Source: Hyphomonadaceae bacterium JAD_PAG50586_4 (lineage in GTDB: Bacteria; Pseudomonadota; Alphaproteobacteria; Caulobacterales; Aquidulcibacteraceae). Taken from it: a DNA stretch of 64,000 nt. The notes beneath the pieces were generated by a model. It worked only from the letters and a program-made list of their open reading frames with translations. It made no database searches and was not told where the DNA came from. Every line of letters begins with the position of its first letter. Position 1 is the first letter of the stretch. Position numbers and translations under genes: made by a program. Positions 44,623-51,155 of this stretch are shown here, piece after piece. The stretch covers positions 1,201,944 to 1,265,943 of the forward strand of contig CP096134.1 of NCBI GenBank assembly GCA_023242925.1, written 5' to 3'.

Positions 44623-46410
44623 ATGATCTCAAATCGCCGCCGGGTCATTACAGCACTCGGCTCCACCATGCTTGCGCCTCTGGTGGCCGCGCCCGCTTGG
44701 GCGCAAACGCGCAGTCGCGCGGATCGCGCATTCGAAGCTTTGGGCCGTCGCTGGCTCGATCGCTCGCTGCGGCTTTCGCCGATCAATGCAACGACGACCG
44801 GCGATCACCGCTTCGATCACCTCCTCGATGACGTGAGCGCATCCGGGCGCGCCGCGAGCCTGCGCTTTGCGCGCGAAACGCTGGACGCGCTCGAAGCGAT
44901 CGATGCCAGCCAGCTCTCACGCGCGAACCAAGTCGATGCGCTGATCCTTGGCAATTCGCTCCGTGCGCAGATTTGGCAGACGGAAACCTGGCGGAATTGG
45001 GCGTGGAATCCGCTGGGCTACCAATCGCTCGCGGGTGGCGCGCTTTACGGTTTGATGGCGCGCGAGTTCGCGCCGTTGCCGCAGCGTTTGGAATCTGCGA
45101 CTGCGCGGATGGAGCGTTTGCCGACTTTGCTGGCGCAAGCGCGCAGCGAGTTGCAGCCCGCGCGCGTGCCTGCGCCGCACGCCGCCATGTACGCCGCGCA
45201 GAATCCGGGCCTGAAGAGCATCGTCACTGACATGATCGAGCCGCACAAGGGCGTGCTCAATGCGCGTAAGCGTGCGCGTCTTGAGGGGGCGATCGTGACG
45301 TTCAACGCAGCAGTCGATGAGCATCAAGCCTGGATCGTCAGCACGCTCGTGCCAGCGGCGCAGGCGGAATTCCGCGCCGGCGCTGAAGTGTTCGACACGC
45401 AATTGCGCTTCACGCTGCAATCGGATCTGACGCGCGCCGAAATCCGGCGTCGCGCTGATGCGGCCGTCATCAGTGTGCGCGAGGAGATGTATCGGGTGTC
45501 TAAGCTGGCGCTGGCCGACCGCGCCGAGGCGCCGGCGACACCCGACGCGCCTTCGCCGGAGCAGCAGCAAGCCGCGATCCGCGCAGCACTCGATCTGGCC
45601 GCCGCTGATCGCCCTGCACGCGATCGTGTCGTGCAGATCGCGACCGAAGGTGTGGAGGAAGCGCGTCGTTTCGTGGTTGAGCGCAATCTCATCACCGTGC
45701 CGGAAGGCCCAGTGCGGGTGATCGATATGCCGGAATTCCAACGTGGGGTCGCTGTTGCGTATTGCGACTCGCCCGGCCCTCTCGAACAGCATCTCGATAC
45801 GTTCTACGCGGTCTCGCCGATCCCGGACGATTGGACCGAAGAGCAGGCGACGTCGTTCTTGCGTGAGTACAACATACGCCAATTGCTCGATGTATCTGTG
45901 CACGAGGCGATGCCGGGCCATTACACGCAAATCTGGCATTCGAACCGCTATCCCTCGACGTTGCGCGCGGTGCTGGGCTCTGGTTCGTTCGTCGAGGGCT
46001 GGGCGGTCTATGCGGAAGAGCTGATGGTGGAAGAAGGTTTCCGCCGCGACGATCCGCTGTTTTGTCTGTCGCAGTTGAAGATGCAATTGCGCTCGATTGC
46101 CAACGCCATCATCGATCAGGCCATCCACGTTGATGGCATGAGCCAAGAGGAGATGATGCACTTCCTGACGCATACGGCGTTCCAGGAAGAGCGCGAGGCG
46201 GCGGGCAAGTGGCGTCGCGCCCAACTCTCGGTCACGCAACTTTCGACCTATTTCGTGGGCTTCCAGGAGCATCTGGAAACCCGCGTCGCCGCGCGCGCTG
46301 CGTGGGGCGGCCAATTTAATCTCAAGCGTTATCACGACGGCGTACTGGCGTTCGGCTCACCGCCGTGCCGCTTTGCACGCCAATTGCTGCTGGATGAACC
46401 GATCCAATGA
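44623..46410 (+). CDS. DUF885 family protein with Tat-like signal
   Basis: SNRRRVITALG twin-Arg leader; HEAMPGHYTQ and FVEGWAVYAE motifs; QLSTYFVG. Confidence 0.9.
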   Translation: MISNRRRVITALGSTMLAPLVAAPAWAQTRSRADRAFEALGRRWLDRSLRLSPINATTTGDHRFDHLLDDVSASGRAASLRFARETLDALEAIDASQLSRANQVDALILGNSLRAQIWQTETWRNWAWNPLGYQSLAGGALYGLMAREFAPLPQRLESATARMERLPTLLAQARSELQPARVPAPHAAMYAAQNPGLKSIVTDMIEPHKGVLNARKRARLEGAIVTFNAAVDEHQAWIVSTLVPAAQAEFRAGAEVFDTQLRFTLQSDLTRAEIRRRADAAVISVREEMYRVSKLALADRAEAPATPDAPSPEQQQAAIRAALDLAAADRPARDRVVQIATEGVEEARRFVVERNLITVPEGPVRVIDMPEFQRGVAVAYCDSPGPLEQHLDTFYAVSPIPDDWTEEQATSFLREYNIRQLLDVSVHEAMPGHYTQIWHSNRYPSTLRAVLGSGSFVEGWAVYAEELMVEEGFRRDDPLFCLSQLKMQLRSIANAIIDQAIHVDGMSQEEMMHFLTHTAFQEEREAAGKWRRAQLSVTQLSTYFVGFQEHLETRVAARAAWGGQFNLKRYHDGVLAFGSPPCRFARQLLLDEPIQ

Positions 46411-47439
46411 TGAACTGGAAATCGAACCCATCCTACGATGGGCATGAAGACGTCGTGTTCGTCGGCGACGAAGCTTTGGGCTTTGCCGGCATTGTGGCGA
46501 TCCATTCGACAGTGCTTGGCCCGTCAGGCGGCGGCGTGCGGGTGTGGACCTATCCGCGCGAAGAAGATGCGCTGACCGACGCGCTCCGCCTCTCGCGCGG
46601 TATGACCTACAAGAACGCGATGGCCGAGCTGCCGATGGGCGGCGGCAAAACCGTGCTCTACAAAATGGGTCCCGATCGCGCCGCGTGTTTTGAGAAATTC
46701 GGCGAGCAAGTCCAAGCAATTGGCGGCCGCTACGTCGCGGCCGAAGATGTTGGCGCCACGGTGAACGATATGCGCGCGATCGCTCGGCAGACGCCCTACG
46801 TCTCGGGTATTCCGAAAGAGGGCGGCCAGGCTGGCGGCGATCCCAGCCCATGGACATCGCTCGGCGTGTTCTTGTCGATCAAGGCGTTACTGGGCGGGGC
46901 GGTGCAGGGCCGCACCATTGCTGTGCAGGGTACGGGCGCTGTGGGCCTGGGGCTCTGCAAGCTGCTTGCGGACGAAGGCGCAAAGCTCTTGGTGGCGGAC
47001 GTGAACGCAACGAGATCTTGAGCGCGCGAAAGCGTTGGGCGCGGAAGTCGTCGCCGTGGACCGCATCCATGCCGCGACGGCCGATCTATTTGCGCCGTGC
47101 GCACTGGGCGCTGGCCTCAACGCGACGACCATCCCGGAACTCGGCGCGCCGATCATTTGCGGCGCGGCGAACAATCAATTGGCCACGGAAGATGACGGCG
47201 CACGCGTGCAAGCGCGCGGCATCGTCTATGCGCCCGATTACGTGGTGAACGCGGGCGGCATCATCAGCGTCAGCGCTGAATATATCGGCGAGACCGAAGC
47301 CGCCGTGGATGCTCGCGTGCGCGCGATCGCGCCGCGTCTGTTGAACGTGTTGGACACCGCGAAAGCCGAAGGGCTGACGCCGCACCAGGCCGCTGACCGT
47401 ATCGTACGCGAGCGGCTCGCCGCCGCGCAAAGAGCTTGA
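46407..47439 (+). CDS. Leu/Phe/Val dehydrogenase; frameshift near 47015
   Basis: [50 protein letters not shown] and [11 protein letters not shown]. Confidence 0.9.
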
Positions 47440-47447
47440 GGGAGCCC

Positions 47448-49698: not shown

Positions 49699-49703
49699 GG
49701 GTT

Positions 49704-51155
49704 ATGGGCCAGTACGTATTCAAGCTGCCGGACGTGGGTGAAGGTACGGCTGAGGCCGAGATCGTCGCCTGGCACGTGCGCGTGGGCGACATGGTCAAAG
49801 AAGACGCCCCGCTCGTTGACGTGATGACGGATAAGGCGACGGTCGAGATGACCGCGCCAGTCAGCGGCAAGATCGTCGAGATCAATGGCGAGCCGGGCGA
49901 CATGGCCGCCGTTGGTTCTGCGATCGTGGTGTTTGAGACGGATGCTGCTGACCTTGGACCGACGGCGTCCTCGCCGTCGACCCAGGTTCAGCCGCCGCAA
50001 AAACCCGCCGGCGAGACGCAGGCGGTCCAAGAGGCGCCGGCGCAAGTGGCGAACAGCAACGGCGTAGCGCCGCCGCCAGCCGCCGCGAGCGAACCCAAGC
50101 CGCGCATCAGAGCGCCGGCCGGAGCTGTGTGGAGCGAAGAAGCCGTGCAAGCGGCGATGGGCGCCAGGTCTGCTGTGCCGACAGCGTCCACCCCGGTTGG
50201 CAAATCATCACAGCCCGCGCCGAAGCCATCGCAAGCGGTGGCGCGCGCGGATCTGCGTGAACCCGCTGTGCGCGAATGGGGCAACGCGCTGGCCTCGCCC
50301 GCCGTGCGCGCGCGTGCGCAAAAACTCGGGATCGATCTCGGCCAAATTCGCGGCACTGGCCCGGACGGGCGTATCTCGCATGAAGATTTGGACGCGGTGC
50401 TTGTGCCCGCAACCGGCGCGCGCGGCGGTGGTTCGTCAGCGTTGGCCGTGAAGAATGGCGTCGAGCCGGTGAAGGTGATTGGCCTACGCCGCAAGATCGC
50501 GGAGAAGATGCAAGACGCCAAGCGCCGCATTCCGCACTTCGCTTATGTCGAAGAATGCGATCTCACCGAACTTGAAGAACTCCGTGCGCATCTGAACGCG
50601 ACCAAGCGCAATGATCAGCCGAAGCTGACAATGCTGCCGTTCCTGATGCGCGCGCTCGTGCTCGCATTGCCGGATTTCCCGCAGATCAATGCGCGCTACG
50701 ATGACGAGCAGGGCGTCGTCTATCGCCATGATAACGTCGATATCGGCATCGCCACGCAAACTGATAACGGCCTGATCGTGCCGGTCGTACGTCACGCCGA
50801 AGCGCGCGACGTGTGGGATTCCGCGACAGAAGTTTCGCGCCTCGCCGCCGCTGTGCGCAACAACAGCGCCGGCAAAGACGAACTCTCCGGTTCCACCATC
50901 ACGATCACGTCGCTGGGCGCGCTCGGCGGCATCGTCACGACGCCGGTGATCAATCACCCTGAAGTCGCGATCATCGGCGTGAACAAGCTGGTCGAGCGCC
51001 CGGTCGTGAAGAACGGCCAGATCGTGGTCCGCAAGATGATGAATCTCAGCTCGTCCTTCGATCACCGCGTCGTCGATGGCTATGACGCCGCCGCCTTCAT
51101 CCAACGCGTGAAGGGCCTGCTGGAGCATCCCGCCGCGCTGTTCATCGAGCGCTGA
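49704..51155 (+). CDS. bkdB: Dihydrolipoamide acyltransferase E2
   Basis: Lipoyl domain VMTDKATVE; E3-binding ASPAVRARA...GTGPDGRI; catalytic SFDHRVVDG. Confidence 0.95.
   Translation: MGQYVFKLPDVGEGTAEAEIVAWHVRVGDMVKEDAPLVDVMTDKATVEMTAPVSGKIVEINGEPGDMAAVGSAIVVFETDAADLGPTASSPSTQVQPPQKPAGETQAVQEAPAQVANSNGVAPPPAAASEPKPRIRAPAGAVWSEEAVQAAMGARSAVPTASTPVGKSSQPAPKPSQAVARADLREPAVREWGNALASPAVRARAQKLGIDLGQIRGTGPDGRISHEDLDAVLVPATGARGGGSSALAVKNGVEPVKVIGLRRKIAEKMQDAKRRIPHFAYVEECDLTELEELRAHLNATKRNDQPKLTMLPFLMRALVLALPDFPQINARYDDEQGVVYRHDNVDIGIATQTDNGLIVPVVRHAEARDVWDSATEVSRLAAAVRNNSAGKDELSGSTITITSLGALGGIVTTPVINHPEVAIIGVNKLVERPVVKNGQIVVRKMMNLSSSFDHRVVDGYDAAAFIQRVKGLLEHPAALFIER

Follow-up and report, generated by a model that had tools for sequence, protein, structure and literature searches.

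A DUF885 gene precedes leucine dehydrogenase-type and BCKDH genes in a putative operon confined to one genus of Caulobacterales

The bkd operon of Pseudomonas putida has the composition bkdA1A2B-lpdV with bkdR, and that of Bacillus subtilis the composition ptb-bcd-buk-lpdV-bkdAA-bkdAB-bkdB. The locus analysed here contains bkd and ldh genes that are textbook, preceded by a gene for a DUF885 protein. DUF885 is a large family, with nine copies in this genome and three crystal structures (3U24, 3O0Y and 3IUK), for which we found no assigned activity. Literature naming the family yielded no demonstrated activity, only mentions in passing, and searches for PF05960, IPR010281 and the DUF885 PDB codes returned nothing relevant. 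NCBIfam holds no name for the protein, the depositors of the three structures assigned no function to them, and no published analysis of these structures was found in the literature searched.

The window, that is, the whole stretch of 64,000 nucleotides that was analysed, contains the following features at and around the locus:

44279..44355, minus strand: tRNA-Arg(ACG), the upstream edge of the unit (ARAGORN; Rfam RF00005, 61.7 bits)
44520..44622, plus strand: conserved 5′ region of the putative operon (alignment of 20 upstream regions)
44623..46410, plus strand: DUF885 protein, 595 aa (PF05960, 308 bits; PDB 3U24, E 3.5e-93)
46407..47439, plus strand: leucine-dehydrogenase-type (ELFV family) gene, ldh, split (Pfam matches on both halves)
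47448..48680, plus strand: bkdA1, BCKDH E1 alpha subunit (PF00676 and OxoDH_E1alpha_N)
48685..49698, plus strand: bkdA2, BCKDH E1 beta subunit (Transket_pyr and Transketolase_C)
49704..51155, plus strand: bkdB, E2 dihydrolipoyl acyltransferase (PF00364, PF02817 and PF00198; lipoyl, E3-binding and catalytic domains)

The five genes are packed as the initial annotation had described: the TGA of DUF885 and the ATG of ldh share ATGA at 46407–46410, and the run continues tightly through bkdA1, bkdA2 and bkdB with gaps of 8, 4 and 5 nt (ldh–E1alpha, E1alpha–E1beta and E1beta–E2, respectively). Across the 47 related loci the exact ATG/TGA overlap recurs in 34, ATGA is found at this junction in about 40, and the ldh–E1alpha spacing is mostly 8–11 nt. 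The region scanned for plus-strand terminator-like sites, 44100–52000, which includes the operon, contained none. Alignment of 20 upstream regions revealed an invariant TTGC at 44537–40, followed about 16–17 nt later in most relatives by a TATTTT-like element, and an invariant GGAG Shine–Dalgarno site at 44607–10, 12 nt before the DUF885 ATG; within the operon, such a conserved promoter-like element with a Shine–Dalgarno site was seen upstream of DUF885 only. Because a simple sigma-70 scan gave no consensus promoter, the assignment of a promoter to this region is inferred. On these sequence features, the five genes would form a single transcription unit, with one promoter upstream of DUF885 driving all of them. 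In metatranscriptome runs, at most 7% of the sampled words were found. No Lrp- or sigma54-type regulator gene adjoins the operon. As a candidate further member we considered orf184 (51213–51767), which encodes a candidate TIMP-like inhibitor; it is present in only 1 of the 47 linked loci and therefore lies outside the conserved unit.

The dehydrogenase does not form one open frame in this assembly: the leucine-dehydrogenase-type gene is indeed present, but a frameshift within it had been overlooked. It consists of 46407–47021 (204 aa, ELFV_dehydrog_N) and a piece in the +1 frame that extends to 47439 and carries the C-terminal part of ELFV_dehydrog, and DNA alignment with four relatives located a 1-nt insertion near 47011–47014. 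Were the frameshift genuine, the strain would have an ldh pseudogene and would depend on transaminases or a paralogue. The extra base falls outside any homopolymer run (AACGAG) and a second ELFV-family gene is present at C1:271877–272902, yet we judge a true pseudogene very unlikely, given that the contigs covering the site from three metagenome runs (X1, X3 and X4; at least 99% identity) all lack the base, that ldh is unbroken in 46 of 46 relatives, where its product has 341–355 aa, and that at least four other genes are likewise split in this single-contig, 92.8%-complete assembly. Because both the near-identical metagenome contigs and all relatives are without it, the extra base is probably an assembly error.

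The best PDB matches of the ldh product were the LeuDH structures 6ACF, 3VPX and 1LEH. The Ldh of one relative (L017) scored 295 bits to LeuDH 6ACF and 3VPX, 252 to TrpDH and 193 to PheDH, and Ldh scores under the NCBIfam ScyB cut-off. By these comparisons the product appears to be of the leucine-dehydrogenase type, closest to LeuDH structures. The E1alpha, E1beta and E2 proteins have the features of the BCKDH type; E1alpha (OxoDH_E1alpha_N and E1_dh) matched the alpha subunit of P. putida 2-oxoisovalerate dehydrogenase (2BP7/1QS0) over its full length with 552 bits, against only 175 bits for PDH E1alpha. NCBIfam offered sub-threshold PDH/OGDH names alone for the bkd genes, and more was learned from the PDB sequence search. 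The 64-kb window contains no lpd gene, and none of the 47 linked loci has one within 9 kb. Two lpd genes that exceed the TIGR01350 cut-off are located elsewhere in the genome, at 2.158 and 4.017 Mb, each adjoining other E2 genes. Since E3 is missing from the locus it must be borrowed, as the earlier reading of a shared E3 had it, and one of these two lpd genes would be its source.

The order DUF885–ldh–E1alpha–E1beta–E2 is kept in 47 of 47 linked loci, each from a different species-level genome, with DUF885 proteins 64–89% identical, and in all eight same-genus genomes having this ldh. Outside the clade, 33 orthologue loci (53–69% identity) carry DUF885 without ldh-bkd among unrelated, non-conserved neighbours; no alternative conserved neighbourhood emerged among them, no non-self cluster occurring in more than 9 loci. 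At 21 ldh loci in other genera of the order, DUF885 was upstream in none and bkd downstream in one. The frequency of linkage, put forward initially as a check, thus gave a divided answer: universal in one genus-level clade, absent at the orthologue and ldh loci beyond it. On the tree the linkage needs one gain and one loss, and it is confined to one genus of Caulobacterales with a single evolutionary origin.

We propose that the locus is a genus-specific five-gene catabolic operon in which an exported DUF885 peptidase feeds Ldh and BCKDH, with a borrowed E3, and regard this proposal as evenly balanced between right and wrong. A substantial though less probable explanation is co-transcription without metabolic coupling, whereby, in the ancestor of the genus, an ldh-bkd module came to lie downstream of, or was joined to, a DUF885 gene that had stood alone, and now uses that gene's promoter; DUF885 itself would be an envelope peptidase of general function, or a hydrolase with a housekeeping role, whose substrate is not specific to branched-chain amino acids. 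The single origin of the linkage fits such an event, and the nested orthologue clade works without ldh-bkd and without conserved neighbours; against this, 47 species-level genomes retain both the gene order and the 4-nt ATGA overlap even though their DUF885 proteins have diverged. The DUF885 paralogues also favour an uncoupled role, the seven loci examined (of nine; L001–L007) lying in unrelated contexts, with no shared theme in the ten flanking ORFs scanned. In other Caulobacterales, moreover, ldh and bkd are usually unlinked, which makes the whole operon a recent assembly. The DNA just 5′ of DUF885 nevertheless rearranges freely, the gene neighbourhood differing between relatives and the tRNA being found in either orientation, at upstream distances of 200 nt to 9 kb, whereas the five-gene unit does not, which suggests selection on the unit.

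The ORFs flanking the seven paralogues include those for FliP, MaoC hydratase, PEPCK, EEP nuclease, DUF1365, a VWA protein and a histidine kinase.

The DUF885 protein matched PF05960 with 308.2 bits (cut-off 32.4), covering profile positions 1–530 of 532, and is the most divergent of the copies in the genome, seven others scoring 480–601 bits and the ninth, a partial one, 240. Both zincin-like motifs noted previously are present, as H427-E428-A-M-P-G-H433 and E458-G-W-A-V-Y-A-E465, with H427, E428, H433 and E458 invariant in 24 orthologues and HE..PGH present throughout the 80 orthologue rows as well as in the seven paralogues that were checked. In HEAMPGH, however, the second His comes six positions after the first (HExxxxH), which makes the motif non-canonical relative to the zincin HExxH. 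The HExxH on a single helix that defines gluzincins is likewise absent from the structural model, in which a helix stops at 428 and the next begins at 433, so that a break at A-M-P-G separates the two His; E458, 25 residues past H433, lies within helix 454–470. We found no characterised precedent for the HExxxxH spacing.

The N terminus of the protein is twin-arginine-like (MISNRRRVITALG...AWA, then Q) and can be read as a signal with a cleavage site (SNRRRVITALGSTMLAPLVAAPAWA before Q); 66 of 80 orthologues have RR at the N terminus, and the seven checked paralogues all have signal, lipoprotein or RR N termini. The initial label of a Tat-type protein had the SNRRRV...AWA-Q pattern as its sole basis; the pattern is there, but the TAT signal HMMs of Pfam and NCBIfam gave no match in the first 50 residues. 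On this pattern the DUF885 protein would be exported via Tat.

An AF2 (AlphaFold) model of the protein (pLDDT 88.9; residues 1–27 disordered) matched the three DUF885 crystal structures with Z 39, 32 and 31. Beyond these, the matches were almost only clan-MA peptidases, with MATCAP first (Z 14.0), followed by M32 carboxypeptidases (Z 11.2–12.3 over 358–384 residues), PepF (Z 11.7), Dcp (Z 9.6), ACE (Z 9.2), and M1 and thermolysin (Z 8–10), values that are only moderately over the background for helical proteins. Foldseek returned E of about 1e-3 to PepF and ACE, and the fold shared by gluzincins and clan MA is recognizable in the model. These matches agree with the metallopeptidase-like fold anticipated from the motifs, and a gluzincin-like, two-lobed helical metallohydrolase is the best explanation of the model, from which zinc binding and peptidase activity are predicted.

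Whether the fold also means peptidase activity bears on a further alternative, in which DUF885 serves in the periplasm for binding or as a kind of chaperone, or else hydrolyses a non-peptide amide or ester, such as an N-acyl amino acid or a lipopeptide-like compound, to a product that feeds into Ldh and BCKDH. We consider this improbable. HExxxxH with its Pro-Gly helix break in place of HExxH is compatible with it, but H427, E428, H433 and E458 do not vary; Z values of 9–14 are attainable by fold resemblance alone in an all-helical model of 600 residues, but the non-DUF885 matches are almost all zinc peptidases of one clan, and Pfam assigns DUF885 to the Peptidase_MA clan (PMC12572635). The lack of a depositor-assigned function for the three crystal structures also leans towards a non-peptidase, as does the hhalign comparison with the genome's own M32 carboxypeptidase, which found nothing (probability 0.2%), a result that is uninformative because the alignment was shallow and only one target sequence was used.

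Under the proposed coupling, the exported DUF885 protein would use a metal site made of the extended HExxxxH and the Glu 25 residues downstream, and would most likely trim periplasmic oligopeptides, probably from the C terminus like its nearest structural neighbours. The freed amino acids would be taken up (the operon itself contains no transporter gene), deaminated by Ldh and converted to acyl-CoA by BCKDH. A preference for Leu, Ile and Val, and the metabolic coupling of DUF885 to Ldh and BCKDH, may be read from the gene arrangement. A stronger form of the proposal is unlikely in our view: that DUF885 proteins of the 3U24-like branch are periplasmic metallocarboxypeptidases of a new type, with an HExxxxH metal site, and that the one in this genus is dedicated to freeing branched-chain amino acids from peptides for Ldh and BCKDH. 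If true, a large family with solved structures but no annotation would thereby receive its first functional assignment. H427, E428, H433 and E458 are marked out as the residues to mutate. The translationally coupled and conserved position before a well-understood catabolic pathway is a concrete clue to the role of DUF885, useful but modest because the linkage is restricted to one genus of the order, and its value is limited further because it arose once, in a genus of mostly uncultured Caulobacterales from freshwater, soil and wastewater.

Among known proteins, the closest is PDB 3U24 of Shewanella oneidensis, a full-length homologue (32% identity, Z 39.1 over 538 residues) that has the same HEAxPGHYTQ and VEGWAVYxE motifs and is also exported, being annotated as a 'putative lipoprotein of unknown function'; like 3O0Y and 3IUK, it comes from another genomic context. 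The M32 carboxypeptidases of the carboxypeptidase Taq family (BsuCP 3HQ2, PfuCP 1K9X, FisCP 5E3X, TcMCP-1 3DWC and the Deinococcus radiodurans enzyme 5GIV) have a two-lobed all-helical gluzincin fold that aligns over the whole chain, with the metal-ligand Glu on a helix about 25 residues past the second His, a placement matched by E458, the candidate ligand of DUF885. They differ in sequence (9–12% identity, with no sequence-level relation detected), in having HExxH in place of HExxxxH, and in being known as cytoplasmic enzymes, whereas a signal peptide is predicted for DUF885. The tubulin tyrosine carboxypeptidase MATCAP/TMCP (7Z5G; Z 14.0 over 241 residues) aligns in its catalytic lobe only and, unlike DUF885, is a eukaryotic cytoskeletal enzyme. 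This gluzincin is catalytically active with its motif extended to HExxxH, and DPP III (M49) is grouped alongside the clan solely for sharing HExxxH (PMC10499314); catalysis therefore does not need the canonical spacing, although the His–His spacer has one extra residue in MATCAP and DPP III and two in DUF885. Among gene clusters, the bkd operons of P. putida and B. subtilis share the order E1alpha, E1beta, E2 with the locus described here, and that of B. subtilis likewise includes a leucine dehydrogenase gene; unlike both, the present locus is without lpd and has the gene for a predicted exported DUF885 protein as its first cistron.

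ORF mapping and domain searches across the window (G000:C1:1201944–1265943 of a single-contig genome of 4.18 Mb), whose best protein and locus matches were with Terricaulis/Vitreimonas-like Caulobacterales, placed five genes on one strand downstream of a tRNA gene:

44279–44355, − strand: tRNA-Arg(ACG), the upstream bound of the DUF885 region
44623–46410, + strand: DUF885 protein, 595 aa (PF05960, 308 bits)
46407–47439, + strand: Glu/Leu/Phe/Val-dehydrogenase-family gene (ldh)
47448–48680, + strand: BCKDH E1alpha, with a 2-oxoisovalerate-dehydrogenase N-terminal domain
48685–49698, + strand: E1beta
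49704–51155, + strand: E2, with lipoyl, E3-binding and catalytic domains

The DUF885 stop overlaps the ldh start in an ATGA (46407–46410), and the remaining intergenic gaps are 8, 4 and 5 nt. E1alpha matched the Pseudomonas putida 2-oxoisovalerate dehydrogenase alpha subunit over its full length at 552 bits, compared with about 175 bits for PDH E1alpha. The nearest relative has an unbroken dehydrogenase, which matched best the leucine dehydrogenases 6ACF, 3VPX and 1LEH (about 275–296 bits), with tryptophan and phenylalanine dehydrogenases ranking behind. These matches and the mapped ORFs therefore bear out the gene calls and coordinates of the initial annotation, in which DUF885 heads a leucine dehydrogenase–BCKDH operon. 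The upstream regions of 20 relatives contained an invariant TTGC, followed in most by a TATTTT-like element about 16–17 nt on, and an invariant GGAG 12 nt 5′ of the DUF885 ATG; together these fix the DUF885 start codon, and the upstream elements place the sole conserved promoter-like element before DUF885. No terminator-like site was found on the + strand inside the five-gene run, and we infer that the five genes are co-transcribed.

The annotation of ldh as one open gene did not hold in this record. The gene occupies two frames (46407–47021, then a +1-frame piece ending at 47439), and alignment with four relatives located one extra, frame-breaking window base inside GCAACGAGATC. We compared the window with contigs from four aquaculture-metagenome runs that contain a strain at least 99% identical; the contigs spanning the ldh site, from three runs, all lacked one base at 47014, the sole indel in 7 kb. 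ldh was unbroken (341–355 aa) in all 46 related loci with a complete gene. Most probably the frameshift stems from an error in the assembly. Completeness of the assembly is only 92.8% despite the closed contig, and further genes in it are broken, namely an M32 peptidase, a gamma-glutamyltranspeptidase and an lpd-like gene. The gamma-glutamyltranspeptidase (39290–41234, − strand) is split into two ORFs, 40251–41234 corresponding to Pfam profile positions 2–184 and 39290–40276 to positions 207–512, which is likely another indel error. The lpd-like pyridine-nucleotide disulfide oxidoreductase (G000:C1:3895810–3897164, genome coordinates) consists of two pieces that overlap and contains an internal TGA, a further sign of such errors. 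At 43315–44221 (− strand), an AraC-type HTH_18 ORF has no stop codon before it meets the frame-shifted 5′ end of a glyoxalase/VOC ORF (43315–43716), and the region is either two genes or one HTH–VOC fusion broken by an indel; AraC and VOC remain neighbours in relatives.

Scanning a single genome for each species yielded 80 loci with DUF885 orthologues (53–89% identity). The order DUF885–ldh–E1alpha–E1beta–E2 was present, within contig reach, in 47 of 47 loci labelled Terricaulis, Vitreimonas or 'Hyphomonadaceae', whose DUF885 identity was mostly at least 70% (64% in one) and whose DUF885/ldh junction had the exact ATG/TGA overlap in 34 and ATGA in about 40. Neither ldh or bkd nor any other common neighbour was found near DUF885 in the remaining 33 loci, which include Micropepsaceae, Aquidulcibacter, Phycosocius, Rhizomicrobium and Lysobacterales. 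In a comparison of 151 genomes from the order, each of the eight same-genus genomes with this ldh had DUF885 upstream and E1alpha downstream; the 21 ldh loci from other genera lacked an upstream DUF885 of whatever paralogue type, and bkd lay downstream in only one. The proposed linkage thus holds throughout the genus clade and is missing from the 33 orthologue loci and the 21 ldh loci elsewhere. In a maximum-likelihood tree rooted on the genome's own paralogues, linked rows were paraphyletic around a single nested unlinked clade, and therefore indicate one gain and one loss; on this tree, the linkage records a single evolutionary event. The main rival explanation, under which the operon came together within one genus by historical accident, is favoured by that nested clade and by the unrelated gene contexts of the seven DUF885 paralogues whose flanks were examined. 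Among linked genomes, the five genes stay together while the DNA 5′ of DUF885 is freely rearranged, a pattern that suggests some selection on the five-gene unit.

Five contigs labelled 'uncultured Flavobacteriaceae' (L056, L059, L066, L067 and L075) carried DUF885 orthologues (65–67% identity) whose place in the tree is among Micropepsaceae and further alphaproteobacterial rows; the label on these MAGs probably reflects mis-binning or mislabelling. Three further genes flank the run:

41142–42173, + strand: Peptidase_S58 (DmpA-type aminopeptidase), 2.5 kb 5′ of DUF885
51213–51767, + strand: orf184, a small secreted protein directly 3′ of bkdB (E2)
51912–53509, + strand: TIR_2-domain gene

The synteny of Peptidase_S58 is loose (4–9 kb upstream of DUF885 in relatives), placing it outside the operon. 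orf184, for which no family match was found, occurs in just 1 of 47 related loci and is therefore not in the conserved unit. In most genomes of the genus the TIR_2 gene is conserved (68–89% identity), on the strand of bkdB and 1.5–5 kb 3′ of it; it seems to belong to the core genome and not to a mobile defence island.

Sequence searches with DUF885 returned three structural-genomics entries to which the depositors assigned no function; one, 3U24 (Shewanella 'putative lipoprotein'), aligned end to end (E 3.5e-93) and has both motifs, as HEAxPGH and EGWAVYxE, in common with the HEAMPGH and EGWAVYAE of the window protein. A model computed with AlphaFold2 from 24 orthologues (pLDDT 88.9, pTM 0.88) was disordered at residues 1–27, consistent with a signal peptide, and in it E428 ends one helix and H433 begins the following one. 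Exhaustive structural alignment, with which Foldseek agreed for PepF and ACE, gave the following matches.

Structural matches of the DUF885 model
3U24 (DUF885): Z 39
3O0Y (DUF885): Z 32
3IUK (DUF885): Z 31
MATCAP tyrosine carboxypeptidase: Z 14.0, 241 residues aligned
Five M32 carboxypeptidases: Z 11.2–12.3, 358–384 residues aligned
Oligoendopeptidase F: Z 11.7
Dcp: Z 9.6
ACE: Z 9.2
M1 aminopeptidases and thermolysin: Z 8–10

The non-DUF885 values are just moderately over background, the model being all-helical, and the list is almost purely clan-MA zinc peptidases, in agreement with the Pfam clan assignment of DUF885 (quoted in PMC12572635). HEAMPGH, initially called zincin-like, is present as described, but its pattern is HExxxxH, with two residues more than the HExxH of zincins, and it is not of that class. 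H427, E428, H433 and E458 are invariant in the orthologue alignment, and HE..PGH is present in every one of the 80 rows of orthologues and in each of seven paralogues examined, out of nine in the genome (among the nine are loci L001–L007, G000:C1:517840–518796 and the window copy). All seven have a signal, lipoprotein or RR N-terminus, several with a twin-arginine motif and lipobox; the window protein is the most divergent full-length copy, on a 3U24-like branch. An extended HExxxH site can be catalytic, as in MATCAP/TMCP and DPP III (PMC10499314), whereas DUF885 has HExxxxH, for which we found no characterised enzyme. The literature searched reported no activity for any DUF885 protein, and a smaller rival explanation is that DUF885 is no peptidase at all. 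The peptidase interpretation is plausible and is better framed by an M32/MATCAP-like fold, an extended putative metal motif and a predicted export signal; DUF885 would most likely be an oligopeptide- or carboxy-peptidase.

No lpd gene is in the window, and in none of the relatives does an lpd homologue occur within 9 kb of the five genes. Two genes exceed the TIGR01350 cut-off, at 2.158 and 4.017 Mb, each with another E2 gene a few kb away, which indirectly supports the earlier suggestion that E3 must be shared. Elsewhere in the genome, a strain-specific cluster (L129, G000:C1:268000–279500, − strand) has eight genes on one strand, in the order MR_MLE enolase-superfamily, esterase, Peptidase_M32 (broken by a frameshift), MFS transporter, Peptidase_M20, second ELFV-family dehydrogenase, unknown 450-aa protein and FAD-linked oxidase. 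No close orthologue of this dehydrogenase was found in 120 genomes of the order. Its peptidases stand beside an amino-acid dehydrogenase; therefore the pairing recurs in this genome, an extra hint of such an association.

In the best-supported account, DUF885 would be an exported gluzincin-like hydrolase, predicted to act as an oligopeptide- or carboxy-peptidase and expressed together with the enzymes for the initial two steps in the breakdown of branched-chain amino acids; the freed amino acids would be imported through transporters encoded elsewhere, and E3 would be borrowed from another complex. A peptide-to-catabolism unit is a plausible interpretation, resting on one evolutionary event. 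The bkd/ldh part of the locus is ordinary; a bkd operon with DUF885 first and without lpd is a new variant on known bkd operons.
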